Assembly (NCBI GenBank): GCA_964638145.1
Contig: CAZXAK010000040.1
Location: 3,852-67,851, forward strand
DNA length: 64,000 nt
Direction: 5' to 3'
DNA from: an uncultured Desulfobacterales bacterium
GTDB taxonomy: Bacteria > Desulfobacterota > Dissulfuribacteria > Dissulfuribacterales > QOAL01
Made by a program: the position numbers and the translations under genes. Under the pieces are notes generated by a model. That model made no database searches. It was not told the DNA's origin and worked only from the letters and a program-made list of their open reading frames with translations. Positions 13,685 to 62,514 of this stretch are shown piece after piece; within the stretch, counting starts at the first letter, position 1, and each line of letters starts with the position of its first letter.

Positions 13685-14122
13685 ATGATCCCCTTCTCCA
13701 TCTTTCCCATGCGGGATGTGATCATGGTCTCCATCCAGGAGGAGATTGATGACCGGCACGTCTCAAGGCTGGTAAAGGAACTCAGTAACCGGGTGAAGTC
13801 CAGCCATGTACGATACGTCATCATTGATCTCCACGACGTGGAGGCAGTAGACACCTTTCTTGCAGGAGAAATAGAGAAGCTTGCCGCAATGCTCTACTTC
13901 CTGCGGGCCTCCACCATTGTGGTTGGCCTGTCTGTACCTGTGGTGCTGACCCTGCTGGATTTTGGCATAAAGTTCCAGGGCGTGGAATTTGCTTTGGATG
14001 TCGAGCAGGCGTTATCAAGGATAGGTGGGCCACAACCCTTTGAAGAAGACCTGCCCCCTTCCTCTGAGGACAGCAACGAGGAGGAGATCTCTCCCGGTCC
14101 CCACCGGGACCCCCAGGTCTGA
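13685..14122 (+). CDS. rsbS: RsbS-like single-STAS stressosome scaffold protein
   Basis: VIMVSIQEEIDDRHVSRL...VIIDLHDVEAVDTFLAGEI...VVGLSVPVVLTL. Acidic C-terminal tail. Confidence 0.8.
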   Translation: MIPFSIFPMRDVIMVSIQEEIDDRHVSRLVKELSNRVKSSHVRYVIIDLHDVEAVDTFLAGEIEKLAAMLYFLRASTIVVGLSVPVVLTLLDFGIKFQGVEFALDVEQALSRIGGPQPFEEDLPPSSEDSNEEEISPGPHRDPQV

Positions 14123-14136
14123 ACAGGGCCTATCCC

Positions 14137-14547
14137 ATGACAGTTGACAGATCACGATACTGTGCTCCTGTAAACGCAGATACCGGGCTTGCACCTGTCC
14201 GGTCCATGGCCATCTCCCACTTCAGGCGGCTTGGCATACGTGCGGTTGACAGATCCGAGATGCTCGTACTGATAAACGAGCTTGCCACCAACATCATCAG
14301 ACACGGCGGCAATGGGGAGATATGCCTGTTCCCGCTGTCAGTGAAAGGGCATTCAGGCTTCCTGATCAGGGCAATTGACTCAGGCCCAGGGATCAAGGAC
14401 CTTAAAAAGGCACTTGAGCCAGGCGGGTCTGAAGATCATGGGTTGGGCCTTGGCCTCAACGCAATAAGGAACCTATCTGACGATGTCAGGATATCGAGCA
14501 GGATCCAGGGGGGGACCCAGATCGAGGTCTGGAAATGGCTAAACTGA
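14137..14547 (+). CDS. rsbT: RsbT-like serine kinase / switch protein (GHKL ATPase)
   Basis: N-box ELATNIIRH, G1 DSGPGI, G2 GLGLGLNAI. 136 aa. Follows the rsbR-rsbS pair. Confidence 0.8.
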   Translation: MTVDRSRYCAPVNADTGLAPVRSMAISHFRRLGIRAVDRSEMLVLINELATNIIRHGGNGEICLFPLSVKGHSGFLIRAIDSGPGIKDLKKALEPGGSEDHGLGLGLNAIRNLSDDVRISSRIQGGTQIEVWKWLN

Positions 14548-30573: not shown

Positions 30574-32226
30574 ATGCTGACCAAACTTGTTGAGACTGAC
30601 CAAAAGAAGGTCTTGAGATTCCGGTTGATCATGTCGGTTCTCGGCGTGGTGATAATCATTGCTGTGATACTGGTATCTGTCCAGTTCTATCAGACCAGAC
30701 ACAACAAGAAACAGTTCTCGGCGTTCGTCGTAAAGAGTGTTGCAGGAATCGAAAAGAAGAAACTGGAAGGACTCATTGACGAAATCGAGGGAACCCTCAA
30801 GGTCTTTCGTGACTGGGGAGAATCAGGCCTCATTGATATAAGCGCCCCAGGCAACCTAAATGCCAAACTCTTTCCCATATTCAAACAGCATCCCCTGATA
30901 CAGGCCCTTGTAATCGCAGACAGCAGGGGGACAGAATACATGATATTCCGGGAGCAGAGAGGGTTCAGGACCTTTTTTATCAAGACATCCGGCAAGCAGG
31001 GCCGCGTCGTATATGTACAGGAGTGTACAGCCCCTGACAGATGCCAGAAGAGCGATGACACCACTGCAGCCGCAGCGGCCATAATCAGGCAGAAGATCAT
31101 CACCGAAGGCTACGACTCGTCTGACATGAATGAGATTCAGTGGTCGGCCCCTGTGCTCACCGACGTTGAACAGGGTCCTGCCGTTGGCGCAACCCTCCAT
31201 TACCAGCACAAGAGAGATCCGAAAGAACACGGCCTGGTCAGCATCATAGTAAACCTCGACGATATATTCGGCACTGTCCAGGCAGGCAGGACCACCTCGG
31301 TGGGCATACCATTTCTGCTGGAGACAGACGACTGGCATGTGCTTGTGAAACATCAGGAATTTTCCGGCTGCCATACCCCGGAAGGACAGGAACAGAAGAT
31401 AGACTCCCTCGACGTGCTGAAGCATGTGGTGGCAGAATGGAAACAGAAGGGAGACATCCCGCACGGGCCGTTCAGCTTTAGCTGGATGGGCCGCAAGTGG
31501 TGGATAGCCATATCGCCGCTTGGGAAGGAGACTAAGGGATCGGATCGCAGGATGTGGGTAGGTACCCTTATTCCGGAAAGAGACATGAGAGAGGTGGTAA
31601 GCTCATCGGCCAGTACCCCCGTGGCGTTCTATCTCGTCGTGCTCCTTGCCGGTGCAGGCCTGATTGCCTGGCTCATGTGGAAACATGGCAGCGCGCTGTC
31701 AGGGACAAGACATGGGCAGGACTCAGGCAGTAGCATCACTCCAGATGATATCATCAGGGTCATAAGGCAGGGAGAAGGGGACCAGGTAGAATTCAAGTCC
31801 ACCATGAGGAAAAACCTCCATACCGGCAAGTTTGGAAAGGAGATAGAGCTGGCCTGGCTCAAGGCCGTGGTATCCTTCATGAACTCCAAAGGGGGCATAC
31901 TTCTCATCGGGGTTGACGACAAGGGCAATGTGATTGGCATTGAAGACGATGAATTTGAAAACGACGACAGATGCGGCCTTCACTTCAAGAACCTCATAAA
32001 TCAGCATGTAGGGGCAGAGTTCTTCCCCTTCATAGATTTTGCCATCTGTGAGATAGATGGCAAAAAGGTAGTGGCAGTACGGGTGCGAAGCTCTGACAGA
32101 CCGGTATTTCTCACTGTGGGAAAGGAGGAGGCATTCTGGGTCCGCTCAGGGCCATCAAACATGAAGCTGTCAGTGAGCAAGGCCCTTCATTATATTGAGA
32201 CCAGAAAAAAACAGGGAAAAAAGTGA
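30574..32226 (+). CDS. Two-TM membrane protein: periplasmic sensor-like domain (about 310 aa) plus cytoplasmic AlbA_2 (Schlafen-like) domain
   Basis: TM1 about aa 17-39, TM2 about aa 349-369. C-terminal EGDQVEFKSTMRKNL...LKAVVSFMNSKGGILLIGVDDKGNVIGI matches the AlbA_2 signature (E..EFK ... GG.l.iGv.D.G...G). Confidence 0.7.
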   Translation: MLTKLVETDQKKVLRFRLIMSVLGVVIIIAVILVSVQFYQTRHNKKQFSAFVVKSVAGIEKKKLEGLIDEIEGTLKVFRDWGESGLIDISAPGNLNAKLFPIFKQHPLIQALVIADSRGTEYMIFREQRGFRTFFIKTSGKQGRVVYVQECTAPDRCQKSDDTTAAAAAIIRQKIITEGYDSSDMNEIQWSAPVLTDVEQGPAVGATLHYQHKRDPKEHGLVSIIVNLDDIFGTVQAGRTTSVGIPFLLETDDWHVLVKHQEFSGCHTPEGQEQKIDSLDVLKHVVAEWKQKGDIPHGPFSFSWMGRKWWIAISPLGKETKGSDRRMWVGTLIPERDMREVVSSSASTPVAFYLVVLLAGAGLIAWLMWKHGSALSGTRHGQDSGSSITPDDIIRVIRQGEGDQVEFKSTMRKNLHTGKFGKEIELAWLKAVVSFMNSKGGILLIGVDDKGNVIGIEDDEFENDDRCGLHFKNLINQHVGAEFFPFIDFAICEIDGKKVVAVRVRSSDRPVFLTVGKEEAFWVRSGPSNMKLSVSKALHYIETRKKQGKK

Positions 32227-32612: not shown

Positions 32613-33530
32613 ATGAAAAGAGTTTCTTTAATCCTGCTAACCATCTGCTGTTTCTTCTTTTTAACCGTCTTTTCCGCAGTGGGAGAGGAAAAGGCAGCAC
32701 CAGCAGCAGAAAAACCGGCAAAGACAGAGACCAAGCAGGCGGCTCAACCCGAGGCCAAGAAGGGTGATGAGCAAAAAAGTGAGGCACAGGCAGCCTCCGA
32801 CCAGGAGAATGCAGGTATCGCGTTAACCGATGCCGACTGTGTCAAGTGTCACCGCAAGGAAGTGATGGATGTTGATGAAAACGGAGCATCCCACAAGGAC
32901 GTAGGCTGTACAGAGTGCCACCTTGAGCATCCGCCAGCAGGGAAGAACTGCATTCCTCAGTGCTCAATGTGTCACATGCCTGAAGACAACGAGCACTTCA
33001 AGGTGCAGGGATGTGTGGTATGCCACTATCCACACCATCCACTCAAGATCGATTTCACAAAGGCAAATCCTGCAAAGCCTGCCTGTATAGCCTGTCATGC
33101 CGAGCAGGATGCCGAGATGAAACTCCATCCCAGCGCACACTCAGAACAGGATTGCAACAACTGTCACTACTCTCATGGGCTTGGTGAGGGCCAGTACAAC
33201 ACATGTGTTGACTGTCACGAAGGCCATTCAGACGACATGACAGTTTCTGACTGCCTCAAGTGTCACAAGCCTCACAGCCCCACAGATGTAACTTATGGAG
33301 ACGACGTAGCCCCCAAGCTGTGCGCAGCATGTCACGATACGGAAGCAGGACTCCTTGCAGCATCCAAGACAGCTCACCATGACCTGGCCTGTGTTGAGTG
33401 TCACCCCGAACACCACAAGAACATAATGCAGTGTGAAGAGTGCCACGATCAGCCTCATGATGAGTACATACACAACAAGTTCCCCAAATGCCTTGACTGT
33501 CACAGGGATCCGCATAACCTTGCGAAGTGA
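32613..33530 (+). CDS. Dodecahaem cytochrome c (12 CxxCH; three tetrahaem modules A-B-C), secreted
   Basis: Signal peptide MKRVSLILLTICCFFFLTVFSA and a Lys/Glu/Ala-rich linker. 12 CxxCH counted by hand: CVKCH, CTECH, CSMCH, CVVCH, CIACH, CNNCH, CVDCH, CLKCH, CAACH, CVECH, CEECH, CLDCH. Confidence 0.92.
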   Translation: MKRVSLILLTICCFFFLTVFSAVGEEKAAPAAEKPAKTETKQAAQPEAKKGDEQKSEAQAASDQENAGIALTDADCVKCHRKEVMDVDENGASHKDVGCTECHLEHPPAGKNCIPQCSMCHMPEDNEHFKVQGCVVCHYPHHPLKIDFTKANPAKPACIACHAEQDAEMKLHPSAHSEQDCNNCHYSHGLGEGQYNTCVDCHEGHSDDMTVSDCLKCHKPHSPTDVTYGDDVAPKLCAACHDTEAGLLAASKTAHHDLACVECHPEHHKNIMQCEECHDQPHDEYIHNKFPKCLDCHRDPHNLAK

Positions 33531-33538
33531 TCCTGTTT

Positions 33539-33560
33539 GGCCCGCTCTATAGAGCGGGCC
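33539..33560 (+). other. Intercistronic perfect 9-bp stem-loop between cytochrome genes 1 and 2
   Basis: GGCCCGCTC-tata-GAGCGGGCC, 9 nt after the stop. No T-run follows. Confidence 0.55.
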
Positions 33561-33586
33561 TCATAAAAAGGGAAAAGGTGGTGAGG

Positions 33587-34861
33587 ATGAAAGCTCTTTT
33601 CAGTTACGGCTGGTTGTGGTCTCTGATCTTCCTGCTCTGTGCCTCTGGTGTAAGGGCCGAGGTCAAAGAGCCGGTACTGTCAGACAATGACTGCATAAAG
33701 TGTCATGATGATATTGTCTCAATGGTAAAAGGGCAGAAGTCAGCCCACAGGGACAAGATCGGGTGCCTTGACTGTCACAAGGGACACCCGCCTGCAGGCA
33801 AGGTAATCATTCCTAAGTGCAGTATGTGCCATGACCCTGCGGACAAGAAACACTTCACCCTCAAAGACTGCAAGAGATGCCACAATCCTCATGCACCAAT
33901 TATTACAGACTTTGCCAAACTCAAAAATGTCGCACCAGGCTGCATTACCTGTCATCCGCAGCCTGGTGAAGACCTGAAGAAATTTCCAAGTGCCCACTCC
34001 AAACAGGACTGCAACAACTGTCATACAGGCCATGGACTGAAAAAGGGCAGGTACCACACCTGTACTGACTGCCACAAGAAGCACGCTGACAACCTTACAA
34101 TCAAGGACTGCCTAGCATGTCACAGCCCGCACAAACCGGCTGTTTACATCTGGACAAAGCAGGCCACGGCTGACAGATGCGCTGCGTGCCATAAAGATAT
34201 AGTCAAAACCTTTAAGAAAAGCGGTGGTGCTCACCTTGAAAACCTCCAGTGCATAGAGTGCCATGAGAAACATCCACCTCACAAGGAGGGGGTTATTCCC
34301 AAGTGCCAGTCATGCCACAACCCTGATGAGAACAGACACTTTACAGCGGCTGACTGTACGAAATGCCACGATCCGCATGCACCTATGGAATTCGACCTGT
34401 CAAAGGTCAAGGACGTAAAACCCGCATGTGCCACCTGTCACGAAGGGCCGGTCAAGGAGATGAAACTCCATCCGAGTGCCCATGCCAAACTTGATTGCAA
34501 TGCATGCCACAGGGTTCACGGCCAGTTCCTCAAGTGTACGGAGTGTCATGATCCGCACAGCCCTGACATGAAGTATGAGGACTGCCTCAAGTGCCACCAG
34601 CCGCACGCCCCGACACTCCTGGAGTATGGTTCCAGTATCAAGCCAGCCCTGTGCGGTGCATGTCACCAGCAGGAGGCTGCAGAACTTGAGACAAATACCA
34701 CCAAGCATCATGAGTTGAACTGCGCGTTCTGTCACAGGAGAAGACACAAGTCTATTCTGACGTGTGTGGAGTGTCACGGAGAGCCACACAGAAAATCCGT
34801 GCACAAGCAGTATACTGACTGCCACACCTGTCATGGCAGTCCTCATGCGCTTCAGAAATAA
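33587..34861 (+). CDS. Icosahaem cytochrome c (20 CxxCH; modules A-B-A-B-C), secreted
   Basis: ATG 33587 after GGTGGTGAGG. Signal peptide MKALFSYGWLWSLIFLLCASGVRA. 20 CxxCH counted by hand. Confidence 0.92.
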   Translation: MKALFSYGWLWSLIFLLCASGVRAEVKEPVLSDNDCIKCHDDIVSMVKGQKSAHRDKIGCLDCHKGHPPAGKVIIPKCSMCHDPADKKHFTLKDCKRCHNPHAPIITDFAKLKNVAPGCITCHPQPGEDLKKFPSAHSKQDCNNCHTGHGLKKGRYHTCTDCHKKHADNLTIKDCLACHSPHKPAVYIWTKQATADRCAACHKDIVKTFKKSGGAHLENLQCIECHEKHPPHKEGVIPKCQSCHNPDENRHFTAADCTKCHDPHAPMEFDLSKVKDVKPACATCHEGPVKEMKLHPSAHAKLDCNACHRVHGQFLKCTECHDPHSPDMKYEDCLKCHQPHAPTLLEYGSSIKPALCGACHQQEAAELETNTTKHHELNCAFCHRRRHKSILTCVECHGEPHRKSVHKQYTDCHTCHGSPHALQK

Positions 34862-34920
34862 TCCCTGATACGCCTTTTTCGGAGTGGAGATTGAAAAAAC
34901 AGGGATTGACAATTGGTTCT

Positions 34921-34955
34921 GCAGGCCCTTCTATCAACACCATGAAGGGGCCTGC
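34921..34955 (+). terminator. Stem-loop (possible attenuator or partial terminator) between cytochrome genes 2 and 3
   Basis: GCAGGCCCTTC / GAAGGGGCCTGC: 11 bp with one bulge and a 12-nt loop, followed by AATTTGTAT. Confidence 0.4.
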
Positions 34956-35113
34956 AATTTGTATATCATGGTAGAGACCTTTGTTTTGTCGTACCATCGT
35001 GCAGAAAATGTACCTTTGCAATACCACATGCCCTGAAACACTCTATTAATCCACTTTTTCACAATCACGCTTTCAGAGCATGGCAATAAGCAGGGGGAGG
35101 AGAGCAGGGTAAG

Positions 35114-36097
35114 ATGAAAAAAGACAACCGGAGAAAACAGTTCAGCCTCTTAGCATGTTGCTGTCTTATCTCTTTCATTTTTCTTATGTCTCATGGGGTG
35201 TATGCCTCTGAGAAGAGTGCCACTGAGACAAAAGAAAAGGCAACCCGGCAACAGGAAGAAACTGTCACCAAGGCAACGGGGAAAGAGGGCAGCAAAAAGG
35301 TCGTCAAGGAAAAGACTCCACCTGCAAAGAAAGCCGGGGGGGAGGATATCTACAGTGAGGATATCAAGCCTCTGACCTCAAGGGAGTGCGCCAGGTGTCA
35401 CTACACGGTATATCTTGCAATAAAACAGGGTAAGGGTGCACACAAGAAGGCCTGTACATTCTGCCACAAGACCTATCACAACTTCCAGCGCGGACTAACG
35501 TGGGACCAGCGTGTACCTCACTGCGTAAACTGCCACAAGCTCCCTCATGGAGATTCCAATGGCATGAGACAGTGCCTCAAGTGTCACACCAATGCACATG
35601 CGCCGCTTGCCAGCATCAAGATGAAGGTCATAGAGCCCATGTGCTCCACCTGTCATGCCAAACAGGCCAAGGAACTTAAGGACTATCCAAGCGGTCACTC
35701 TGCAGTCAACTGCGCTGTCTGCCACCATGATACCCACGGTTTCAGGCCGGCATGTACCGAGTGTCATGAAAAACCCCATACCGCCTACAAGGACAATGCA
35801 GGGTGTATGGCCTGTCACAAGCCACACATGCCCAAGAACATAACCTATGGCCCTGATGTCCCCAACACCATATGTGCCGGATGCCACAAGGGTCCGGTGG
35901 AGAGGATGAAATCAACTACCTCTGCCCACGGCCAGCTGAAGTGTGTGTTCTGTCACGCCCAAAAGCATGGAAACATACCAAAATGCCAGCTCTGTCACTC
36001 TATTCCACATGCAAAAAAGATGATTGAAAAGTTCGGGGACTGCAGCAAGTGCCACGGCAACCCCCACGACCTCAACATGAAAAAGACCAAGAAATAG
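35114..36097 (+). CDS. Dodecahaem cytochrome c (12 CxxCH; modules A'-B-C), secreted
   Basis: Signal peptide and a Lys/Glu-rich linker. 12 CxxCH: CARCH, CTFCH, CVNCH, CLKCH, CSTCH, CAVCH, CTECH, CMACH, CAGCH, CVFCH, CQLCH, CSKCH. Confidence 0.92.
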   Translation: MKKDNRRKQFSLLACCCLISFIFLMSHGVYASEKSATETKEKATRQQEETVTKATGKEGSKKVVKEKTPPAKKAGGEDIYSEDIKPLTSRECARCHYTVYLAIKQGKGAHKKACTFCHKTYHNFQRGLTWDQRVPHCVNCHKLPHGDSNGMRQCLKCHTNAHAPLASIKMKVIEPMCSTCHAKQAKELKDYPSGHSAVNCAVCHHDTHGFRPACTECHEKPHTAYKDNAGCMACHKPHMPKNITYGPDVPNTICAGCHKGPVERMKSTTSAHGQLKCVFCHAQKHGNIPKCQLCHSIPHAKKMIEKFGDCSKCHGNPHDLNMKKTKK

Positions 36098-36146
36098 GGT
36101 GGGCTGAGACAGGGGCCGGTCCGGTACCAACAGGAGGGATCAGAAG

Positions 36147-37292
36147 ATGCAAAACAATGTCAAGGGACTGATAATATTCCTGGTCTGCCTGGCAGGTATG
36201 GCAGGGGCGGCATTCATCATGAAGGCCGTACATCATGATGAGTGCTGGTTCTGTAGCAGCGAGGAGTTCTATGAACGGGGAATCGAGTTGGCCTGCAGTG
36301 AAGACAGTACCAAGAGACAAAAGGGGCTGTCATTCATTGAAAAAGCGGCATCTGAGGGGTATGCCCCTGCTGCCCTGCTGCTATCAGAACTTTATGCCAA
36401 AGGCCAGCCAAAGGGTATCCCGCCTGCAGATAGTCCGGATTCCAAGGTATTGAAGTGCCTTGCAGGCGATGTAAAACCTGACGGGGCAACAGCGCGCAAA
36501 TATCTTGACCAGGCTGCAGAACTCTACCATGCCATGGCAGGAGATTCAGAGAAGGTGGAGCCAGCTCTTGCATATCAACTTGCAGTGATGTACATGTCTC
36601 CACCCTTTTCCAAGCATGATGACGTCTCGTCCTACAAGGCCGCTGAGGTTGCAAAAAGGCTGCTCGGTGTTGCAGCAAAGGGCGGTGTTGTGGATGCCAT
36701 GCTGAAACTTGCCGCTGATGCAGATGCAAAGGGCAATGCTGCCGAGGCACTCAAGTGGTACTCAATGGCCGCAGAGAAAAAACCCAACCAGAAACTCTGT
36801 CTGAAACTGGGCGACCTGTATCTCTATGGCAAGGGTACACCTGTAAACCACAAAGAGGCCCTGAAATGGTACAAGAAGGCACAGACTGAGACAGAAAAAG
36901 CCTGCAAGGATATGCCACCGGAGAAACGGGAACATATGCTTGACATACCGGCAGTGCGCATAGAGATAGCCAAGAGAAAGATGAAACAGGCCGGTGGGGG
37001 AAACCCCATTACTGTAAGCTATGTACTTGAGGGAGATGCCTTTCGCTATGTGATCAAGGTCAGGCAAGAGAGTGGCAAGGAAAAGAAACTGGTCACAGTG
37101 GGAGAGGTGATCAGGACAGACAAGGGGATCAAGGCCCAGGTAGCACCTGGCATCAAGCTGGCAAAGGATGCGCAACGTGAAAAAGACGGTTTTGCATCCA
37201 TGAACCAGGGCATGGAGTGGGTGCTCCGCCAGTGGGCTGCAGCCAGGTTCGGTGCATCTAAGCAGTTCATGTTCAAGCTGGAAAACAGATAG
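36147..37292 (+). CDS. Membrane-anchored Sel1-like (SLR/TPR) repeat protein
   Basis: N-terminal TM LIIFLVCLAGMAGAAFIM. SLR-type repeats (AASEGYAPAALLLSELYAKG; ALKWYSMAAEK...LGDLYLYGKGTPVNHKEALKWYKKA). Confidence 0.75.
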   Translation: MQNNVKGLIIFLVCLAGMAGAAFIMKAVHHDECWFCSSEEFYERGIELACSEDSTKRQKGLSFIEKAASEGYAPAALLLSELYAKGQPKGIPPADSPDSKVLKCLAGDVKPDGATARKYLDQAAELYHAMAGDSEKVEPALAYQLAVMYMSPPFSKHDDVSSYKAAEVAKRLLGVAAKGGVVDAMLKLAADADAKGNAAEALKWYSMAAEKKPNQKLCLKLGDLYLYGKGTPVNHKEALKWYKKAQTETEKACKDMPPEKREHMLDIPAVRIEIAKRKMKQAGGGNPITVSYVLEGDAFRYVIKVRQESGKEKKLVTVGEVIRTDKGIKAQVAPGIKLAKDAQREKDGFASMNQGMEWVLRQWAAARFGASKQFMFKLENR

Positions 37293-54032: not shown

Positions 54033-54314
54033 ATGCAAGTGACCTCCAAGTTGTCTCATACCGTATTTGCCACTATCCTTCTGACCTTTGCCCTTGGTGG
54101 ATGCATCCCGGGAGGTACAGGTGACATGCCAGCAAGAAAACTCATTGCCACCAGGTGCTCTTCGTGTCACAGCACAAAGAGGATATTCAAAAAGAAACGC
54201 AGCGGAGAGGCGTGGGATGAAATTGTTGACAGGATGGTGAGACATGGTGCCAGTCTGAACAGTAAAGAAAAAGGGATGATCGAGGATTATCTCTCTGCAG
54301 AGTATGGCACCTGA
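54033..54314 (+). CDS. Small lipoprotein with a single CxxCH haem-binding motif
   Basis: Lipobox LTFALGGC and one CSSCH, followed by RSGEAWDEIVDRMVRHGASL. Confidence 0.6.
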   Translation: MQVTSKLSHTVFATILLTFALGGCIPGGTGDMPARKLIATRCSSCHSTKRIFKKKRSGEAWDEIVDRMVRHGASLNSKEKGMIEDYLSAEYGT

Positions 54315-54376: not shown

Positions 54377-55327
54377 CTAACGGACTCCCCCTCTTCGGAA
54401 TATACGTATGGCAAAGACCAACATTGATAGCAGTGGATGACGCCGCAGAAACGGGCTTACCTCAAGTGCCACACCAGAATGACGCTCAATCTTGTAAACA
54501 GCATAATCAACCCCTCCCCTGAAGGTAAAGGCCGCCTTCATAAGCCTCAGAACAGAGAGTATCTTGCCCTGCACACTTCTGACAAACCACCCCAGTCGGC
54601 ACATGTTGCGAGTACGTCCATCAATACTGGCTCGCCAGCAGGGCTCAACACCGTGCATGAATCTCAGGCCAAACGGTACGGCTTCAAGTGCAGGACCTGT
54701 AACAGCCATAAACCAGTGTGAACCTGCACTGAACAACGCCTCAACCCTGTCGGGCCGTTCCGGACGCAGTTCAGCACCGTACGCAAGCCCGAGACCATAC
54801 TGCCAGACCTGGCTTACCGTAAACTCGGGGGTAATACAGGGTATGGTCCTTGTGAGAAAGGTGATAACAGCACTGGCACACGCCTCCACCACATCATCTG
54901 CATCTGATCTGTCCTTAACATAGATAATGGCAGAAGGCTGACAGAAACGCCCCCAGAAGTATGAATGAAACCATCTCATGGAACACGCCTTTCTGAACTG
55001 GCTCAAAGAGATCACCGCATACTTTACCCTAATCGTCCTGTCTCTATACATACCCTCATAATAATAAACATTTGGGGGTAACAGACAATTTGCCAGAGCC
55101 GAAAGGTTCATGCCATGGGCATGCCCATAGCTGTCAACGAGCACATACAGGTCCACCAGGCCATCAAAGGGATTATCCCGCTGAAGACACGAGCCATAAA
55201 ACAGTACTGCCCGTACCGCACCCCTGTACTTCTCAACCAGGACCTCTGCCAAAAAATCAAGCTCAGGAGAGACCGGACGGATCATGCATTTCTTTATTTG
55301 GCTGAACAGTTGTGGTGGAATTGCCAT
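54377..55327 (-). CDS. Tam41/Mmp37-like nucleotidyltransferase (putative CdsA-independent CDP-diacylglycerol synthase homologue); start uncertain
   Basis: VLFYGSCLQ...VDLYVLVDSY...VKYAVISLSQFRKACSMRWFHSYFWGRFCQP parallels the Tam41 blocks YGSGV / iDfi..V.d / KYGVvs...L..DL..W..lYlAGRLqKP as I recall them. Candidate starts are 55402, 55327 and 55285. Confidence 0.5.
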   Translation of the reverse strand: MAIPPQLFSQIKKCMIRPVSPELDFLAEVLVEKYRGAVRAVLFYGSCLQRDNPFDGLVDLYVLVDSYGHAHGMNLSALANCLLPPNVYYYEGMYRDRTIRVKYAVISLSQFRKACSMRWFHSYFWGRFCQPSAIIYVKDRSDADDVVEACASAVITFLTRTIPCITPEFTVSQVWQYGLGLAYGAELRPERPDRVEALFSAGSHWFMAVTGPALEAVPFGLRFMHGVEPCWRASIDGRTRNMCRLGWFVRSVQGKILSVLRLMKAAFTFRGGVDYAVYKIERHSGVALEVSPFLRRHPLLSMLVFAIRIFRRGGVR

Positions 55328-55377
55328 TACAAGAAGGATAATCGGATACGGTTGGACCCTTTGAACGGGACATGAGA

Positions 55378-56283
55378 TCAGACAATGCCTATCCGCCTGC
55401 ATATGGGGAACAGGCTGGGATACTGGCGCAAAAATCCAAATATAATCCTGTGCATTGGGCCAAGATACTCATAGGCAATGGAATAGGCACGTTCCAAGAC
55501 ATCATTGTCATTATTGTTGCCAAAACTGCGGGCAATTGCTGACCTGGCCCTCTCCCTGAGAATGGCATCATAGGCAGCAAGGTCACTCACCTTGTTACGA
55601 TGGCGGAGAAAGGCGGTAAAACCATAGAACGCTGCAGAGGCACCATGGGCAGACAGCCCACCGGGACTGAACTTTCTGTAGGCCGATGTGGCCTCTGGAT
55701 CAAATACCCAGGGCCTGTCCTGTACTACGCGCAGCCAGAATTCAATATCGTGCCTGCGAAGCTGACTTTCAAGAAATCCTCCCACCTCCCGGACACGCTG
55801 GACATGAACCATACAGGCGGACATACCGACAAAATGGCCATAGCGACTGAACAGCTCAATGTAATCGTCAAGACCTGTGCCTATAACCTCTGACTTGACC
55901 TTGCTCTTGCGGACATGCAATCCGTCACTGCGTATGTGATCGTAATGATTTATATATCCTATGACACCTGTTCGGTTTATAACCTCAACCGCGCGTTTCA
56001 AATGATTGGGAAACCAGATATCATCCGCATCGAGAAATGCAATCCAATCGCCTGATGCGGCCTGTATCCCTGCGTTGCGGGCTCCAGCGCCGCCCCTTCT
56101 GTTGGTTTCAATTACCCTGACATTCATGCCTGACTGGCGCACCACATCCATACTGGAATCAGTGGAGCCATCGTCAACCACAATAACCTCATACGGGGGC
56201 CTACTCTGTGCAGCTACGGAATCAATACACTCCCCGATAAACTTTTCAGCATTATAACACGGTATGATTACAGATATATTCAT
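55378..56283 (-). CDS. Family-2 glycosyltransferase
   Basis: ISVIIPCYNAEKFIGECIDS...VIVVDDGSTD...FLDADD. ATG 56283. Confidence 0.88.
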   Translation of the reverse strand: MNISVIIPCYNAEKFIGECIDSVAAQSRPPYEVIVVDDGSTDSSMDVVRQSGMNVRVIETNRRGGAGARNAGIQAASGDWIAFLDADDIWFPNHLKRAVEVINRTGVIGYINHYDHIRSDGLHVRKSKVKSEVIGTGLDDYIELFSRYGHFVGMSACMVHVQRVREVGGFLESQLRRHDIEFWLRVVQDRPWVFDPEATSAYRKFSPGGLSAHGASAAFYGFTAFLRHRNKVSDLAAYDAILRERARSAIARSFGNNNDNDVLERAYSIAYEYLGPMHRIIFGFLRQYPSLFPICRRIGIV

Positions 56284-56305
56284 CAACTGCTCTCTGGTAT
56301 CTCCT

Positions 56306-57274
56306 TTACACCACAAGAAAGGTCTGTATGCCGCCACAGTCAATGATCACCGGACCTGAATCAGACGTTACATCGTACAGTTCGCCATCAACCGATACCT
56401 GGCCATCAAACTGCAACTCTATGCTTTCCGCACTGGTCAACCAGTAACCATACTGCCTGCCTTTACTGACAGACCTTCCGGCAAACAGCAGCGGGAGCCT
56501 GAACCACAGACCATGAGAGCCACTTGACAGGGCGGCAAAACGAAGGGGCCCCCTGCCCTGCCCCCTTGCAAACGGACGGAGCCCAAAGAGCAATCTGCCA
56601 AGCGTGGTGACCATGATGACGAGGAAGTCGTCATTAACAGGTGCGGAGTCGTCTAAAGTGACAGTGACAGTCCTTGCCCCTGCCCCCCTGCCCCTCTTTC
56701 CAGTAACAGACAGTGCGACATATCTTAAAAATGTAAGGACAATGCCAGGAACTCCCCAAAGTCCCTTACCATGAAATTTCTCACGATAGAAGGCCATGGC
56801 ATCACATATACCTGCGGTGGCCACAAACATGCCGTAATAGACCCCTGCACCAGGGACTGAAACCTGCAGGACATACCTGTTTATGATCCTGTATTTGTCC
56901 CTTCCGGTCACAGTGCCAATCCTCTCAAGCACAGAAGGAAGGGTTCCTCTCACCCCCACATCTGCAGCAGTCATGTTAGTTGTCCCCCCGGCAACCAACA
57001 GTAGGAGGGGTAAGACCGGAAAAGGTCTTTTTCTAAAAAGGGCAGTCATCACGGCCTGTACCGTGCCGTCTCCCCCACTTATAACAAGGAGATTGACCCC
57101 TGAATCACTTAGATCGCGCAGGGCCACTTCAACATCTGTTGGCGTGGTCACCTCCATCACAGGTATGGCAAAACGCGCAGCAATCTCGCTGGCATTCACC
57201 CCTATTTTACAATTCCCCCGGCTCAAGGGATTCAACAACACTCCAGGACGCAACTCTGCTGGCAGACATTTCAT
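56306..57274 (-). CDS. Diacylglycerol-kinase-catalytic-domain lipid kinase (YegS/BmrU/LCB5-like)
   Basis: LLVISGGDGTVQAV motif. Start probably ATG 57274; alternatives are 57286 and 57307. The track is over-extended to 57415. Confidence 0.75.
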   Translation of the reverse strand: MKCLPAELRPGVLLNPLSRGNCKIGVNASEIAARFAIPVMEVTTPTDVEVALRDLSDSGVNLLVISGGDGTVQAVMTALFRKRPFPVLPLLLLVAGGTTNMTAADVGVRGTLPSVLERIGTVTGRDKYRIINRYVLQVSVPGAGVYYGMFVATAGICDAMAFYREKFHGKGLWGVPGIVLTFLRYVALSVTGKRGRGAGARTVTVTLDDSAPVNDDFLVIMVTTLGRLLFGLRPFARGQGRGPLRFAALSSGSHGLWFRLPLLFAGRSVSKGRQYGYWLTSAESIELQFDGQVSVDGELYDVTSDSGPVIIDCGGIQTFLVV

Positions 57275-57296
57275 GTACGGCAGCATGCCGCATGGA

Positions 57297-58496
57297 TTAC
57301 CTGCCATCTTTTCTGGAAAACCACCGGACCGCAAGTGAATCCTGGGGCATGGAGTCAATAGTGCCAAACCATGATTCAAGCTCCTGCCCCCTGATGAACC
57401 GTAGCCAAACCGCAATTGCCAGCCTGATCAACAGAAAGATGGTGGTCAAAACCGTCCACCATGCCACTGCAACCAGGCCAACGTCTGGCCTTCCCAGCAA
57501 AAGCGATACAGTGAGAATAATCATACATGGGTTGCGGCGGGCAGTAACCAGTCTGAAGAAAGAATCAACCGGCCTCCAGCAAAATATTCCAAAACTGCCC
57601 AGTGTCCACTTGAATGTCCCCTCCACAAGGCGACCCACGATATATGCAAGAAAAATCCACCACATGACAGTGGACAGAGGGGTATCAACATCATATCTAC
57701 CAGCCTGCTGAAGCCCCATCCCCCACAGCAGATACCAGAACGGCGGATGCACCAGATCTATAACATGGTCAAAATAGTGACCAAACTTGCTTGAAGTAAC
57801 AGTAACCCTTGCAAGTTTGCCATCAACCGTATCAAGGAAGGTCATGAGCCAGCCTGCCAATAGACCAGCGTAGAAATGACCTGTATAAAAGAACCAGCCT
57901 GCTGCCAGCACAAGCAGAAAACCGAAGGCAGTGACATGGTTGGGTCTAAGCCCAAGCTGAACACATCTCTTTACCACCCTTCTTGCAGGAGCCGGCCAGA
58001 ACCACTTGGTTACCAGATCAGTCACCCCCTTGTATGACCAGTCGAAGATCCTCTTCTCAAGCATGTCCTCCTGGCCAGGCCTGACCTGAATCACAAACGG
58101 GGGTTCAAACTTCCTGAGCCGTTGGTTGAACGAGACAGGCAGCTCGTCTGTACCTCTCAGGACAGGGCCGGCAGGAGGCTTTGCGAAACAGGGATCTTTC
58201 ATGTACTTTACAGTTTGGGCCAAGATGGAGACAGGTACATGTGCCGCAAACGGTACTGCCTGCCCCCCATCCTGCTTCAGCACAATGAGGTCAGGGGTAA
58301 CGGAAAGATATTTCAACAACCTGTCATCTATCAGATAGTCACCCCTGACTACGATAACGCTGGCATCTTCCGGTATGTCCTCCATGCGAGTGACAGGCTG
58401 GACCATGTCACCGAGGATTCTACCTGTTCTCTCGCCTGGGGTAAGGCCCCAGACTTTGACACTGCTCCTATCTATTATATATAGATATAACTTCAT
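57297..58496 (-). CDS. CDP-alcohol phosphatidyltransferase with an N-terminal degenerate nucleotidyltransferase-like cytoplasmic domain
   Basis: Signature D-x2-DG-x2-AR-x8-G-x3-D-x3-D is present as DTVDGKLARVTVTSSKFGHYFDHVID. Multiple TM segments. The N-terminal domain (about 180 aa) lacks a GxGxR loop. Confidence 0.8.
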   Translation of the reverse strand: MKLYLYIIDRSSVKVWGLTPGERTGRILGDMVQPVTRMEDIPEDASVIVVRGDYLIDDRLLKYLSVTPDLIVLKQDGGQAVPFAAHVPVSILAQTVKYMKDPCFAKPPAGPVLRGTDELPVSFNQRLRKFEPPFVIQVRPGQEDMLEKRIFDWSYKGVTDLVTKWFWPAPARRVVKRCVQLGLRPNHVTAFGFLLVLAAGWFFYTGHFYAGLLAGWLMTFLDTVDGKLARVTVTSSKFGHYFDHVIDLVHPPFWYLLWGMGLQQAGRYDVDTPLSTVMWWIFLAYIVGRLVEGTFKWTLGSFGIFCWRPVDSFFRLVTARRNPCMIILTVSLLLGRPDVGLVAVAWWTVLTTIFLLIRLAIAVWLRFIRGQELESWFGTIDSMPQDSLAVRWFSRKDGR

Positions 58497-58554: not shown

Positions 58555-59526
58555 ATGTCCGAGACTATATCCAACAATGCCCAAACCCGCCCATTCCGGC
58601 TGGCCCACCTTTCCGATCCACATCTTGCCTACACACACAATGTGTACCTGCATCAGATAATGAACAAGCGCATTCTTGGATATATACGCTGGAAACTTGG
58701 CAGACAGTCCCGTCAGGACTCAACCATAGCAGATCTGATGGTCAAGGACATTAAGGACCTGCGGGCTGACCATACAGTTATCACCGGAGATATCACCCAT
58801 CTCGGACTCCCAAGAGAATTCATTCATGTGAAAAAATGGCTCAGGAGACTAAACTCTTGCAGTAGGATTTCAATAGTGCCTGGGAACCACGACATCTACG
58901 TAAAAGAACCCTGGAGCAGGTCCTTTGAAAACTGGACAGAGTTTTTCCATCCTGCCCCGCAGACAGGGAAAAAGCCGCATAGAAGTCTGACAGACGTGTT
59001 TCCAACCCTGGAGATTACAGGCAGTATAGCCCTTATAGGCCTTTCATCAGCAGTACCGACTGCTCCCCATCTTGCCACAGGTTACATTGGTACTGAACAG
59101 CTCTCAAGGCTTGAGGCTATCCTGAAACAGCTCCAGGGTCAACGCATTTTCCGGATAATATTTCTGCATCACCCCCCTGTCCCAGGCATTGTGGGACAGA
59201 GAAAATGCCTGACAGATGCCCCTGATCTTAGAGACATTATAGCACAGTACGGATGCGAAATGGTCCTGCATGGCCATGCCCACAGATGCGTCTTGAGCTC
59301 GGTAAAGACCCCTGGCGGCATTGCACCAGTTTTCGGATCTCCCTCTGCCACATCAACAGGGGACAGTCTGGAAAAACGTGCGGGCTGGTTTCTTCACGAG
59401 ATAAGCACGCATTGCCCCCGTTGCAAAGGTTTTGTTCTGCGTAGCCGCAAACGTGTGTTCAGCACTACTGAAAGGGTCTTTAACTGGAGCACACAAAAGT
59501 ACGAAAAAACCATATATTACACATAA
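58555..59526 (+). CDS. Calcineurin-like metallophosphoesterase
   Basis: DPH, GDITHLG, GNHD, HHPP and GHAH motifs in the canonical order. Confidence 0.85.
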   Translation: MSETISNNAQTRPFRLAHLSDPHLAYTHNVYLHQIMNKRILGYIRWKLGRQSRQDSTIADLMVKDIKDLRADHTVITGDITHLGLPREFIHVKKWLRRLNSCSRISIVPGNHDIYVKEPWSRSFENWTEFFHPAPQTGKKPHRSLTDVFPTLEITGSIALIGLSSAVPTAPHLATGYIGTEQLSRLEAILKQLQGQRIFRIIFLHHPPVPGIVGQRKCLTDAPDLRDIIAQYGCEMVLHGHAHRCVLSSVKTPGGIAPVFGSPSATSTGDSLEKRAGWFLHEISTHCPRCKGFVLRSRKRVFSTTERVFNWSTQKYEKTIYYT

Positions 59527-59557: not shown

Positions 59558-60622
59558 TCACAACACCCTTCTGAGTCTCAAAATGGCCATGGTCGCCACC
59601 ACCACTGTAGGCGTGAAAGCAATCACAAACGGGGGCAAATCAAAAAAGGTTCCAATGTCGGTTACCAATTGTTGTCCAAAGTAGAGTGCGATCCCCACAA
59701 ATGAACCTGCTGTCATTCTGAGCCCTGCTCCCATCTCCCGTACAGGTCCGAATACAAAGGTAAGGGACAGCAGGGCCATTGCCGCTGTGGTAAATGGCAA
59801 ACTAAACTTTTTCCACAGGGCAAGGGCGTAGTGTCTGGCACTCTGGCCACTCTTTTCAAGGGCACTGATATACTGGAGGAGCTCCAGGGTGGAAAGGGCA
59901 GTAGGAGGCAACTCCAGGGCGCTTACCTGTTCAGGATTCAGAAAACCGTTCAGGACAAGTGAATGCATGGCCTCGGCCCTGATCTTGTCCCCCTCCATGT
60001 GCTTTACTATCACATCTTCAAGGATCCATCTGTCTTTGAATATCCTGGCACTGTTGGCATGCACCACCTTCCTGAGTCTGTCCATCTCATCGTACTCAAA
60101 TATGTCAACTCCGGAGACGGTCCCGTTATCCCCCACGTTCTCCACATGGATGAACGAATCGTGGAATCTGGCCCAGAAACCATGCCTCACAGGTTTCACA
60201 GCGTTACCTGCAAAGGCCTGAAACCTCAAATTTCGCGCCTTCTGTTCAAGTCCGGGGACAACCGTCTCACCTGCCACCAAGGAAAAAAACATGATCACCA
60301 TACAGGAAGCCATTACAGGTGCGCTTATCCTCCGGATGGATATACCTGACGCCTGCATGGCAAGGAGCTCACTCCTGTCACTAAGGACACCCAGCGAGAT
60401 AATCCCACCGAGCAGAACGGTCATGGGCAAGAGGTCCTGCAACCTGCCCGGCAGTGTCAACAGGACAAATGCAAGTGCATCTTCAACACTGTACGTACCT
60501 TTCCCCACACTCTCGAGCTGGGAAACCAACTCAAAAAAACTGAACAGGATACCTGGAATAGCAAGGACAATAAAAAAAAACTTGAAAAAATACCTTGCGA
60601 TATAGAGATCGAGAATCTTCAT
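59558..60622 (-). CDS. lptG: LptG-like permease (YjgP/YjgQ family)
   Basis: MKILDLYIARYFFKFFF... ATG 60622 overlaps the lptF stop (ATGA). The track is over-extended to 60889. Confidence 0.8.
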   Translation of the reverse strand: MKILDLYIARYFFKFFFIVLAIPGILFSFFELVSQLESVGKGTYSVEDALAFVLLTLPGRLQDLLPMTVLLGGIISLGVLSDRSELLAMQASGISIRRISAPVMASCMVIMFFSLVAGETVVPGLEQKARNLRFQAFAGNAVKPVRHGFWARFHDSFIHVENVGDNGTVSGVDIFEYDEMDRLRKVVHANSARIFKDRWILEDVIVKHMEGDKIRAEAMHSLVLNGFLNPEQVSALELPPTALSTLELLQYISALEKSGQSARHYALALWKKFSLPFTTAAMALLSLTFVFGPVREMGAGLRMTAGSFVGIALYFGQQLVTDIGTFFDLPPFVIAFTPTVVVATMAILRLRRVL

Positions 60623-61686
60623 GATGGCCATGATAGAAGACCCGGATATCGCATGAACAGCAATATCAGCACGGCTATTGCTATCTGACTCCACCATATA
60701 CCGGGAAGAGGCAAAATTACGCCCTGAGCCACCCACTTTTTCAGCAGGGCAGCAAGGATATAATAGACCGCAAAGATCACGATAGCCACTGGAGCCGCTG
60801 CAGACCGCCCCTGACGGGTACCCGATCTGCCCAGAGGCACGCCGAGCAGCGCAAGAAGGACAGTTGATACTGGCGTAACCAGCCTCCACTGAAATTCTGC
60901 ACGCTCCTCAAGGTCACGGGGGTGGACAAGCTCAGATGTGGGTAACGCCTTCACCCTCTCCTGCCTTACAATACCCGCGGGTTCAATCACCATCTGGGAA
61001 CGTTCAAACTGCACCATGAACTCCCTGGGACCATCTGGCGAGTACTCATACTGATTACCGTTGAACAGGACAAGCACAGGCCGGCCAATCTTTTTGTCAT
61101 AAAACTGTCTGGCCTCTTGCGCGGCAATGACTTGGATGGAATCATCACGATAAGTATAGATGAACAGATTACGGGCAATATTTTTCCCCCTGTCCACCTC
61201 TACGGCAAAGATTACCCTCTTCCCATGCCACAACTCGTAAAAGGTGCCACCTTTCATGCGGGTAAGGTCAAAACTGGCCTTTGCCTCACTTTTGAGACGA
61301 AAAAACTGTTCCCAGGCCCAGGGCCGGATGTACAGGGAGAAACTGGATACCAGCAGTGCAGCAACAACAGAGAGCATGAAAACTGCCCTGACGATGCGCC
61401 CTGTGCCTATGCCGCATGCTGCCATGGCAGTAATCTCAGCGTTCCTGTAGAGACGATTGATGGCTGTTACCACGGAGAGATACAGGGTGGTGGGAATTAG
61501 GACTTCAAGGGAGATGGTGATGCGAAGCAGAATTAACAACATCACCGTAGTTGCAGGTAACTGCCCCTGAGCAGCATCTGCCCAGTACCTGGTGGCAATA
61601 TATGTCCCAAAGATAAAGACCAACAACAAACACGTAATTACTGCTGGTCTGACTATCTCCCGGATTATGTAGCGCTCAGCAATCAA
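60619..61686 (-). CDS. lptF: LptF-like permease (YjgP/YjgQ family)
   Basis: MIAERYIIREIVRPAVITCLLLVFIF... Six predicted TM segments with a central periplasmic domain. Confidence 0.8.
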   Translation of the reverse strand: MIAERYIIREIVRPAVITCLLLVFIFGTYIATRYWADAAQGQLPATTVMLLILLRITISLEVLIPTTLYLSVVTAINRLYRNAEITAMAACGIGTGRIVRAVFMLSVVAALLVSSFSLYIRPWAWEQFFRLKSEAKASFDLTRMKGGTFYELWHGKRVIFAVEVDRGKNIARNLFIYTYRDDSIQVIAAQEARQFYDKKIGRPVLVLFNGNQYEYSPDGPREFMVQFERSQMVIEPAGIVRQERVKALPTSELVHPRDLEERAEFQWRLVTPVSTVLLALLGVPLGRSGTRQGRSAAAPVAIVIFAVYYILAALLKKWVAQGVILPLPGIWWSQIAIAVLILLFMRYPGLLSWPS

Positions 61687-61722: not shown

Positions 61723-62514
61723 TTATCTGTGTTCCTGAACGGTTCCATGCATACCACCGGTATGCATGGTCTCTTCAACACGAAAAAGGGCAGCAGATGC
61801 AGCCATTACACTGCCTGCATTGTACAGATCGTTTTGATAGTCAATCTCGCACCATGACAGGCCCGTGATGGAACAGGTCATCACTGCCATATGCCGGGCA
61901 AGGCTGTCTATCACGGACAGATACCATCTGCCGCTACTTTCAGGGTCCTGGACCGCATCTTCAAGGGCCTTGCTGAAGATGCCAGGCCCCTCACCGAGAA
62001 AACGGATCAAGCCAATGGACTCGCCATGGACCCTGCCAACAGGCAGATCCTTGCCAATGCGCACAAGACGCCTTTGATCAAGGATCACCTTCATGTCATC
62101 TTCATCATAGCTCTCTTTGGAGTTTATGGTTACGGTAATAGGGGTTACAGGTGAATCGAGAAGCTGTCTCACCACTTCAGTCTCAAACAGAGTATCTCCA
62201 TTGAGCAGCAAAAAGTCCTGGTCCATCTCATTGCGTGCCCAGTAACAGCTCACCAGGTTATCCGAGACCGAATACTGGGAATTGTACAGGGTTCTCACAC
62301 CCCTGTCTGCATAATGCCCTGCAATCAAGTTGTCTACCTTGGAGGCCCCATACCCTGTGACAACTACTATATCATCAACTCCTGCCTGATGAAGTGTATC
62401 CAACTGCCATTCCAGTATGGTCCTGCCTGCCACATCCAGCAGACACTTGGGGACAGAGGCGGTAAGGGGAAGGAGACGCTTGCCCTGACCTGCACTCAAT
62501 ATTATAGCCTTCAC
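61723..62514 (-). CDS. Nucleotidyltransferase (sugar-/alcohol-phosphate cytidylyl- or nucleotidyl-transferase family)
   Basis: MKAIILSAGQGKRLLPLTASVPKCLLDVAGRTILEWQL. The substrate cannot be inferred from the sequence. Confidence 0.75.
   Translation of the reverse strand: MKAIILSAGQGKRLLPLTASVPKCLLDVAGRTILEWQLDTLHQAGVDDIVVVTGYGASKVDNLIAGHYADRGVRTLYNSQYSVSDNLVSCYWARNEMDQDFLLLNGDTLFETEVVRQLLDSPVTPITVTINSKESYDEDDMKVILDQRRLVRIGKDLPVGRVHGESIGLIRFLGEGPGIFSKALEDAVQDPESSGRWYLSVIDSLARHMAVMTCSITGLSWCEIDYQNDLYNAGSVMAASAALFRVEETMHTGGMHGTVQEHR

Follow-up and report, generated by a model that had tools for sequence, protein, structure and literature searches.

A cpgA-cpgB-cpgC-type operon with an inserted glycosyltransferase gene in a sphingolipid locus of an uncultured Desulfobacterales bacterium

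What is made by a run of four closely spaced minus-strand genes that encode a CDP-alcohol phosphotransferase, a lipid kinase, a family 2 glycosyltransferase (GT2) and a Tam41-like protein? The genes lie at positions 54,377 to 58,496 of a 64,000-nucleotide stretch, hereafter the window, of contig CAZXAK010000040.1 from an uncultured Desulfobacterales bacterium (assembly GCA_964638145.1). A first-pass annotation, made from the sequence alone, read them as a self-contained route to an unusual (glyco)phospholipid and recognised no characterised pathway in them. Here we report that the combination is that of Caulobacter cpgA-cpgB-cpgC with the phosphoesterase CC_1158 (PMC9393093, PMC11324152), as confirmed by BLASTP, so that the pathway is of a known kind and not new, with one extra glycosyltransferase gene inserted. 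Because of the direct BLASTP matches to CpgA, CpgB and CpgC and the same gene order, we give a probability of roughly 0.8 to the operon being the Desulfobacterota orthologue of Caulobacter cpgA-cpgB-cpgC and, within an outer-membrane sphingolipid locus of about 20 kb, the part that builds the head group. The genes, lettered A to D in operon order, are as follows.

57297..58496, minus strand: cpgA-like gene (A), 399 aa; CDP-alcohol phosphotransferase with six predicted membrane helices and a cytosolic N-terminal AF2299/IPCT-like domain
56306..57286, minus strand: cpgB-like gene (B), 326 aa; DAGK/LCB5-type lipid kinase, probable ceramide kinase; longest open reading frame (ORF) 56306-57415
55378..56283, minus strand: GT2 gene (C), 301 aa, between the cpgB-like and cpgC-like genes; longest ORF 55378-56343
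54377..55327, minus strand: cpgC-like gene (D), 316 aa; Tam41-fold nucleotidyltransferase-like protein; longest ORF 54377-55402

All four ORFs were confirmed on the minus strand at the expected coordinates. The true starts of B, C and D lie downstream of the longest-ORF starts, judging from the lengths of homologues and from separate gene calls on an identical contig, and this leaves junction gaps of about 10 nt (A/B), 22 nt (B/C) and 50 nt (C/D) and upholds the early description of a four-gene operon with small junctions. Each gene has thousands of homologues and the ORFs are thus real genes; the catalytic signatures of A and B are intact, and the GT2 contains DD/DxD acidic motifs. Searches against NCBIfam returned sub-threshold partial matches only for all four proteins. 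A promoter and terminator scan of the window gave counts near shuffle expectation, with terminator-like sites inside coding sequence, and an Rfam scan of the window gave no match.

In Caulobacter, CCNA_01217-01219 (cpgA, cpgB and cpgC, or CC_1159-1161) have been shown genetically to lead from ceramide to ceramide phosphoglycerate (CPG) and ceramide diphosphoglycerate (CPG2) (PMC9393093, PMC11324152). CpgB is a ceramide kinase by biochemical proof (PMC10331486), and CpgC, which has a Tam41/Mmp37 InterPro domain, is genetically required after ceramide-1-phosphate (PMC9393093; PMC11324152 and its supplement). CpgA, with a CDP-alcohol transferase domain of the PgsA type, is required solely to convert CPG to CPG2 (PMC9393093, PMC11324152); a cpgA mutant still makes CPG (PMC9393093). 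It adds the second phosphoglycerate, for which CDP-glycerate from CpgD is the proposed donor (PMC9393093, PMC12275187) and to which the CC_1158 phosphoesterase and CC_1153 also contribute. CC_1152/CpgD, described as similar to CDP-choline synthase (PMC11324152), is a CTP:phosphoglycerate cytidylyltransferase that makes CDP-glycerate (PMC12275187, PMC13228409), and CC_1155/1156 are LptG2/LptF2, involved in sphingolipid export (bioRxiv 10.64898/2026.04.12.717747). The first-pass annotation was right in its general idea of a lipid head-group pathway, in the kinase step, in the cytidylyl chemistry and in listing ceramide-phosphate lipids among the candidate products. Its four-step order, in which the CDP-alcohol transferase attaches a head group after the Tam41-like step, misfits the Caulobacter genetics, since CpgA is dispensable for CPG.

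For direct comparison, the Caulobacter vibrioides locus (strain DSM 9893; L006) was found via a published cc_1160 cloning primer, and the cc_1158 and cc_1159 genes were taken by ORF coordinates. This locus ends before CC_1152-1156, and the comparison covered CpgA, CpgB, CpgC and CC_1158 together with the ceramide proteins AasR, CerR, AcpR and Spt. The order A-B-C of the cpg genes with a divergent phosphoesterase is the same in the window and in Caulobacter, apart from the GT2 between the second and third genes.

The product of gene A matched PF01066 (CDP-OH_P_transf; 37.9 bits) over residues 185-290, preceded by an N-terminal domain of some 170 aa without a Pfam match, and its signature D222-x2-DG-x2-AR-x8-G-x3-D-x3-D247 is complete. 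With Caulobacter CC_1159/CpgA it shares 42% identity over 356 aa, including the N-terminal domain (BLASTP, E=2e-82). Of 73 residues that are invariant in the Desulfobacterota family, 60 are retained in Caulobacter CpgA, including residues around the active site, and the active-site motif DTVDGKLARVT-TSSK-G--FDH-ID is common to both and nearly identical. The AlphaFold2 model (predicted local distance difference test score, pLDDT, 88) matched AF2299 over its full length (4o6n, E=3e-10, template modelling (TM) score 0.60/0.70) and also superposed on IPCT-DIPPS, while the N-terminal domain bears a weak likeness to the IPCT fold (TM about 0.4). The superposition on full-length AF2299 shows that the early description of this protein as a fusion was correct. 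The family has at least 7,800 members, commonly labelled as phosphatidylglycerophosphate (PGP) synthase. Among candidate identities, the IPCT/DIPPS equivalog was rejected at 36.9 bits against the NF041135 cutoff of 580, a match that covers the transferase domain only, and phosphatidylinositol phosphate (PIP) synthase and archaetidylinositol-phosphate synthase were rejected because the PIP-synthase-type NCBIfam models scored 44-52 bits against cutoffs of 170-180. In a 74%-identical relative (GCA_053991135.1; L009) the cpgA-like gene at 6828-8027 (plus strand) is split by gene calling into two ORFs (154 and 182 aa), which may be a frameshift or pseudogene or an assembly error.

Gene B encodes a PF00781 (DAGK_cat) protein (43 bits) with a GGDGT motif, and it is the sole CpgB match in the window (CC_1160/CpgB; 28% identity over 315 aa, E=2.5e-17, BLASTP). 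Direct reading of the ORF translation found no CxxxCxxC motif. An LCB5/DAGK domain with a GGDG motif and without CxxxCxxC is what characterises CpgB orthologues, and the substrate of the kinase is, on sequence grounds, probably ceramide. A YegS/DgkB-type kinase identity was rejected, the best NCBIfam score being 23.9 bits against a cutoff of 274.

The product of gene D scored 20.3 bits with PF09139 (Tam41_Mmp37), under the Pfam cutoff of 24, although many close family members are annotated with PF09139. Its family comprises more than 4,000 clustered sequences with a typical length of 317 aa, and the named members are mostly Desulfobacterota. BLASTP aligned it with Caulobacter CC_1161/CpgC at 32% identity over 282 aa (E=4e-36), and 31 of 41 residues invariant in the Desulfobacterota family are retained in CpgC, among them Y44-G45, D59-x-Y61, K102, W125-x-R127-F128-x-Q130, E186/R188/E190 and a C-terminal Lys/Arg cluster. 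In a Foldseek search with the AlphaFold model, built from 54 homologues (pLDDT 84, predicted TM score 0.84), the five best PDB matches were all Tam41 CDP-diacylglycerol synthases (E=4e-11 to 2e-8, TM 0.52-0.63), including those of Schizosaccharomyces pombe (6ig4, E=4e-11; 6ig2) and a Firmicutes Tam41-CTP-Mg complex (7ecd, TM 0.55/0.63); all other nucleotidyltransferases stayed at TM <0.35. The family profile also found a Tam41 sequence (E=3e-4) through the common block K-Y...W..Y..GRF.QP. The Tam41 assignment of the first pass is upheld by fold and by CpgC orthology in spite of the sub-cutoff Pfam score, and the domain assignments of the other three genes (PF01066, PF00781 with GGDGT, and PF00535) stand as well.

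The nucleotidyltransferase-type conserved residues and the Tam41 fold favour a nucleotide-dependent activation of ceramide-1-phosphate by CpgC-type proteins, as the first-pass annotation had proposed. Activation of a phosphorylated lipid with CTP by a Tam41-like enzyme had already been raised as speculation by the Caulobacter authors (PMC11324152). A bolder version is that the CpgC family is a CTP:ceramide-1-phosphate cytidylyltransferase forming CDP-ceramide, and that GT2 and a family 4 glycosyltransferase (GT4) would then yield a hybrid glyco-phosphosphingolipid, exported through the cluster-encoded LptFG as a lipopolysaccharide (LPS)-like lipid of the outer leaflet in anaerobic sulfate reducers; we hold this as a tentative idea, with the odds clearly against it. 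CDP-ceramide would be an activated sphingolipid intermediate that, to our knowledge, no organism has been reported to make.

Does the operon work alone, as first supposed? The genes upstream of it indicate that it does not. Within the window they are the following.

58555..59526, plus strand: metallophosphoesterase, 323 aa; PF00149 55 bits; CC_1158 orthologue
59558..60631, minus strand: lptG; TIGR04408 340.8 bits (cutoff 240)
60619..61686, minus strand: lptF; TIGR04407 303.1 bits (cutoff 230)
61723..62514, minus strand: LicC-like nucleotidyltransferase in the CpgD position, 263 aa; PF12804 and PF00483
62788..63969, plus strand: GNAT-like protein in the CC_1154 position, 393 aa; weak PF00583 match

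The metallophosphoesterase, as the first pass had noted, starts 58 bp from gene A and diverges from it. It contains the DxH, GNHD and GHxH motifs and is 37% identical to CC_1158 over 294 aa (BLASTP, E=1.7e-59), which has the same divergent orientation in Caulobacter. The lptF and lptG genes are encoded within the sphingolipid locus and adjoin the cpg genes; the 64-kb window holds no second lptFG copy. The best PDB match of the next protein is LicC, a CTP:phosphocholine cytidylyltransferase (1jyk, E=1e-15). Its residues G9/R13, N86, G106 and M141/K155 correspond to G12/R16, N90, G111 and M147/K161 of CpgD at consistent spacing, as judged by spacing only. The gene is conserved in the cluster among relatives, and its product is probably the CpgD equivalent that makes the CDP-alcohol donor. 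The GNAT-like protein gave a weak Pfam GNAT match and no NCBIfam match; its gene is conserved beside an NTP_transf_3 gene in the cluster, and it is 48% identical to its equivalent in L093, a locus of a separate lineage. It is probably a bacterial ceramide synthase, given its position and that this is the sole ceramide-pathway gene otherwise missing.

A tblastn search with Caulobacter Spt found no match in the 64-kb window itself. A contig that carries the identical GNAT-like gene (L007) extends past the window end, where it encodes in order an NTP_transf_3 protein, a hypothetical protein, an AMP-binding protein, an epimerase/short-chain dehydrogenase (SDR), an acyl carrier protein (ACP), an aminotransferase, an ABC exporter and a GT4. 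Compared with Caulobacter, these include Spt (52% identity, E=5e-143), CerR (34%), AcpR (48%) and AasR (42%). The aasR-cerR-acpR-spt genes lie 2.4-7 kb beyond the window end, with spt at about 6 kb. Since these ceramide genes are on the same contig, a complete sphingolipid locus of about 20 kb straddles the 3' end of the window, and the operon is one of its parts. The claim of self-containment is thereby lost, as the ceramide-synthesis genes, lptFG and two nucleotidyltransferase genes, one of them for the probable cytidylyltransferase of the CDP-alcohol donor, belong to the same locus. At L007 5092-5952 (minus strand), aasR and the NTP_transf_3 gene are separated by a gene for a conserved 286-aa protein (h286) without a Pfam match, which recurs in many related loci; among the Caulobacter genes compared it had no obvious counterpart.

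The same block is found in other bacteria. Two relatives at 46-48% identity have the nucleotidyltransferase, lptF, lptG, divergent phosphoesterase, CDP-alcohol transferase, kinase and Tam41-like gene, without the GT2. On a Desulfoprunum-like contig the block is followed by AMP-binding, SDR/epimerase, ACP and aminotransferase genes, a set that is a signature of bacterial sphingolipid synthesis and links the block to Caulobacter CC_1152-CC_1168. A census was made of 80 metagenomic loci (39-56% identity) from an alignment scan with CpgA-like proteins, counting for each feature those loci whose contig reaches far enough. A cpgC-like gene lies downstream of the cpgA-like gene in 41 of 45 loci, with a kinase gene between the two in 36 of 45; the divergent phosphoesterase is upstream of the cpgA-like gene in 38 of 51, and in 28 of 38 the lptF-lptG genes are the immediate upstream neighbours of the phosphoesterase/cpgA pair. 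Among loci of at least 15 kb, 13/21 have ceramide genes and 15/21 the GNAT-like gene. No kinase was detected between the cpgA-like and cpgC-like genes of L068, L071, L077, L078, L081 and L082; in five of these the gap is only 83-158 nt, so that the kinase is encoded elsewhere or absent. The conserved unit is therefore A-B-D, of cpgA-cpgB-cpgC type, and not the four genes.

Where, then, does the fourth gene belong? The product of gene C matched PF00535 (Glycos_transf_2) with 133.6 bits. Within a cpg operon it was found only in the window, in an identical Logan contig (L005) and in the 74% relative L009; it is absent from L001, from the locus of Desulfoprunum benzoelyticum (L004) and from the whole of each locus in the census (0/80). 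Being absent from all more distant relatives, the GT2 was inserted recently, and specifically in this lineage, at the cpgB/cpgC junction and does not count as a core step, contrary to its first placement as a step of the pathway. It belongs to a distinct orthologous group (42-63% identity); a TuaG equivalog identity was rejected because the score fell far below the curated cutoff. In all three contexts seen (L091, L092, L093), a GT4 gene comes next after the homologue (42-59% identity). In L093 the GT2-GT4 pair (8001-10128, plus strand) stands directly after aasR-cerR-acpR-spt, and its GT4 shares 48% identity with the GT4 that closes the window's own locus at the far end, against 43% for the GT4 of L091. 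The conservation of the GT4 and its placement in L093 indicate that a GT2-GT4 module joined sphingolipid loci in two different arrangements, which makes a glycosylation of ceramide or of a phosphosphingolipid by these two putative enzymes plausible. At the same cpgB/cpgC junction, L054 has a fatty-acid desaturase gene (12275-13429, plus strand; PF00487, 78 bits, three His boxes), which suggests that this site accepts lipid-tailoring genes.

Taken together, these data are compatible with the following scheme. AasR, AcpR, Spt and CerR, with the GNAT-like probable ceramide synthase, would make ceramide, which the CpgB-like kinase would phosphorylate to ceramide-1-phosphate, a step shown biochemically for Caulobacter CpgB and predicted here. 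The Tam41-fold CpgC-like protein would be needed for the conversion of ceramide-1-phosphate to ceramide phosphoglycerate, a requirement known from Caulobacter genetics; from its fold, one would most naturally guess that it activates ceramide-1-phosphate with CTP. The LicC-like, CpgD-like nucleotidyltransferase would supply the CDP-alcohol (CDP-glycerate in Caulobacter), from which the CpgA-like transferase may add a second phospho-alcohol unit with the help of the CC_1158-like phosphoesterase and a CC_1153-like nucleotidyltransferase. The anionic lipid would then be exported by the ABC flippase and the cluster-encoded LptFG, and the recently inserted GT2 and the far-end GT4 would probably glycosylate ceramide or the phosphosphingolipid. 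By analogy with Caulobacter, the product is most likely a ceramide-phosphoglycerate-type lipid, possibly glycosylated.

Two explanations without a sphingolipid have to be weighed against this scheme. The operon could be a CdsA-independent glycerophospholipid route, from diacylglycerol over phosphatidic acid to CDP-diacylglycerol made by the Tam41-like enzyme, followed by an inositol-phosphate, glycerol-phosphate or similar head group and glycosylation by the GT2. Tam41 CDP-diacylglycerol synthases are indeed the top structural matches of gene D, the transferase domain has its nearest NCBIfam and PDB relatives in PIP and archaetidylinositol-phosphate synthases, and Caulobacter CpgB phosphorylates diacylglycerol in vitro (PMC10331486); yet the core proteins are orthologous to CpgA, CpgB and CpgC with their invariant residues largely kept, it is sphingolipid species, not phosphatidic acid or phosphatidylglycerol, that are lost in the Caulobacter mutants (PMC9393093, PMC10331486), and the genes are physically linked to spt, cerR, acpR and aasR both here and in the 13 long relatives counted above. 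As the PIP-synthase-type scores are also far under their cutoffs and no inositol-phosphate synthase domain was found among the window proteins scanned with Pfam, we consider this route improbable. Still less credible is a soluble compatible-solute or wall-polymer pathway of the IPCT/DIPPS or teichoic-acid type, in which two soluble phospho-alcohols would be joined without a lipid acceptor. The architecture of gene A resembles AF2299 and IPCT-DIPPS, and a nearby nucleotidyltransferase is partly similar to the IPCT domain; the match to such a pathway that the first pass had named as contrary to its own proposal was not found, however, the two proteins scoring 36.9 and 67.3 bits with NF041135, for which the cutoff is 580. 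The co-location of a lipid kinase, a Tam41-fold protein, lptFG, an ABC flippase and a full ceramide pathway also speaks against it, as does orthology to CpgA, whose deletion removes the membrane lipid CPG2 (PMC9393093).

Closer to the orthology with cpgA-cpgB-cpgC is a lipid derived from ceramide phosphate with another head group (phosphoglycerol, phosphoinositol or a sugar-phosphate), the alcohol being set by the cytidylyltransferase and, here, by the GT2/GT4 pair. It is a possible but less likely outcome, far more credible than the two sphingolipid-free pathways. Against it, the upstream nucleotidyltransferase has a Met and a Lys where CpgD has its glycerate-contacting Met147 and Lys161, as judged by spacing only, and the 42% identity of CpgA with its conserved active-site surroundings argues for a similar donor. 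Pointing towards another head group are the upstream nucleotidyltransferase, a putative CpgD orthologue whose nearest solved relative is LicC, the GT2 insertion with the GT4 in this lineage and L093, where a TagD-like cytidylyltransferase (PF01467, 147 aa; 252-695, minus strand) stands beside lptF in place of the LicC-like enzyme and suggests that head groups vary between lineages; the L093 arrangement may specify a different head group or a purely glyco-sphingolipid variant. This apparent variation counts against the assignment of the operon to a Caulobacter-type CPG pathway, and several further points do so too. Gene B is only 28% identical to CpgB, and CpgB phosphorylates diacylglycerol in vitro with activity comparable to that on ceramide (PMC10331486), so that kinase homology alone leaves the substrate open. 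The GT2 homologues of L091 and L092 are in polysaccharide-type clusters with no sphingolipid genes in view, and the GT2 could accordingly act on another substrate. Both LptF and LptG exceed the NCBIfam cutoffs for the canonical equivalogs and may be the only LptFG of the cell and not dedicated paralogues. Because the Caulobacter contig compared ends before the counterparts of the nucleotidyltransferase, the GNAT-like protein and LptFG, we infer the head group, glycerate or another alcohol. Finally, a Black Sea study predicts sphingolipids in Desulfobacterota from Spt genes alone, without mention of phosphoglycerate head groups (PMC11334938).

The cpg-type anionic sphingolipid pathway had so far been studied in Caulobacter alone, and the orthology proposed here extends it to anaerobic Desulfobacterota, a group that is large and abundant in the environment. 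The orthology would allow the annotation of the CpgC-like and CpgA-like families, whose members are mostly labelled as hypothetical proteins or PGP synthases, to be corrected, and for the main unsolved step of the pathway, the reaction of CpgC, it provides a deep and diverse alignment with a confident Tam41-like model. It also predicts polar, hard-to-extract sphingolipids in sulfidic sediments and water columns, which standard extraction could miss; inefficient extraction of CPG2 has been hypothesized by Zik et al. That lptFG recurs in the locus so far from the Alpha- and Gammaproteobacteria supports a transport of sphingolipids by the Lpt machinery, as recently proposed, and the canonical character of lptF and lptG raises the question of whether one LptFG serves both LPS and sphingolipid. 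The GT2/GT4 module and the desaturase insert mark the cpgB/cpgC junction as a site for added tailoring genes.

Outside the locus, the other approximately 50 kb of the window contain housekeeping genes such as rho, prfA, recA, alaS, parAB and hemC/D, besides homocysteine-biosynthesis genes, a partner-switching module and three multihaem cytochrome genes; Pfam scans found no other lipid-related genes among the remaining window proteins. The partner-switching-type set (12742-16945, plus strand) encodes PAS-STAS and STAS proteins, an anti-sigma-type kinase (HATPase_c_2), a SpoIIE-like phosphatase and a histidine kinase. A 550-aa protein (30574-32226, plus strand) has a C-terminal Schlafen/AlbA_2 domain (78 bits) and 400 N-terminal aa without assignment. 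The three cytochrome c genes (32613-37292, plus strand; 305, 444 and 327 aa, with c7/c3-type motifs) are in tandem and are followed by a gene for a Sel1-repeat protein. Between the end of the operon and a zinc-ribbon gene, a 93-aa ORF (54033-54314, plus strand) has a lipoprotein-type signal ending in LGGC, a single CSSCH haem motif and a weak PF09098 match, and it occupies the same position in the identical contig L005 and the 74% relative L009.

How the locus compares with known systems can be followed gene by gene. The AF2299 and IPCT-DIPPS enzymes of Archaeoglobus fulgidus (4o6n, 4mnd) have, like gene A, a cytosolic N-terminal domain, a six-helix transferase and the full signature; they differ from it in sharing 12-17% identity and in the acceptor, which for gene A is probably a sphingolipid and not inositol phosphate. 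Tam41/Mmp37 (PF09139; 6ig4, 7ecd) resembles gene D in having a nucleotidyltransferase domain with a winged-helix/helical domain and C-terminal helices, at 15-19% identity and with gene D below the Pfam gathering score. The two also differ in substrate, as Tam41 acts on phosphatidic acid whereas CpgC, the orthologue of gene D, acts genetically downstream of ceramide-1-phosphate (PMC9393093).

For the GT2 and GT4 the likeness is conceptual. The Caulobacter Sgt1 and Sgt2 genes, which we take to be CCNA_00792/00793, presumably lie far from the Caulobacter sphingolipid locus. Their products, the ceramide glycosyltransferases of GSL-2 (PMC6445935), are two glycosyltransferases decorating ceramide, as proposed for the GT2 and GT4; the GT2 of the window sits inside the cpg operon.

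The closest system as a whole is Caulobacter CC_1152-CC_1168. Counterparts of its LptC2, CC_1157 and CC_1167 were not seen in the window's locus, and it differs in the position of its ceramide genes, which are directly downstream of cpgC and convergent in L006 and on the other side, beyond lptFG, in the window's locus. In the Desulfobacterota locus, in turn, the GT2 separates cpgB from cpgC and the ABC exporter is followed by an added GT4, and the hosts are an anaerobic Desulfobacterota lineage and an aerobic alphaproteobacterium. What the two share is the three cpg families in the same order with the divergent phosphoesterase (28-42% identity), together with the LicC-like and MobA-like nucleotidyltransferases, lptF/lptG, the GNAT-like gene, aasR-cerR-acpR-spt and the ABC flippase.

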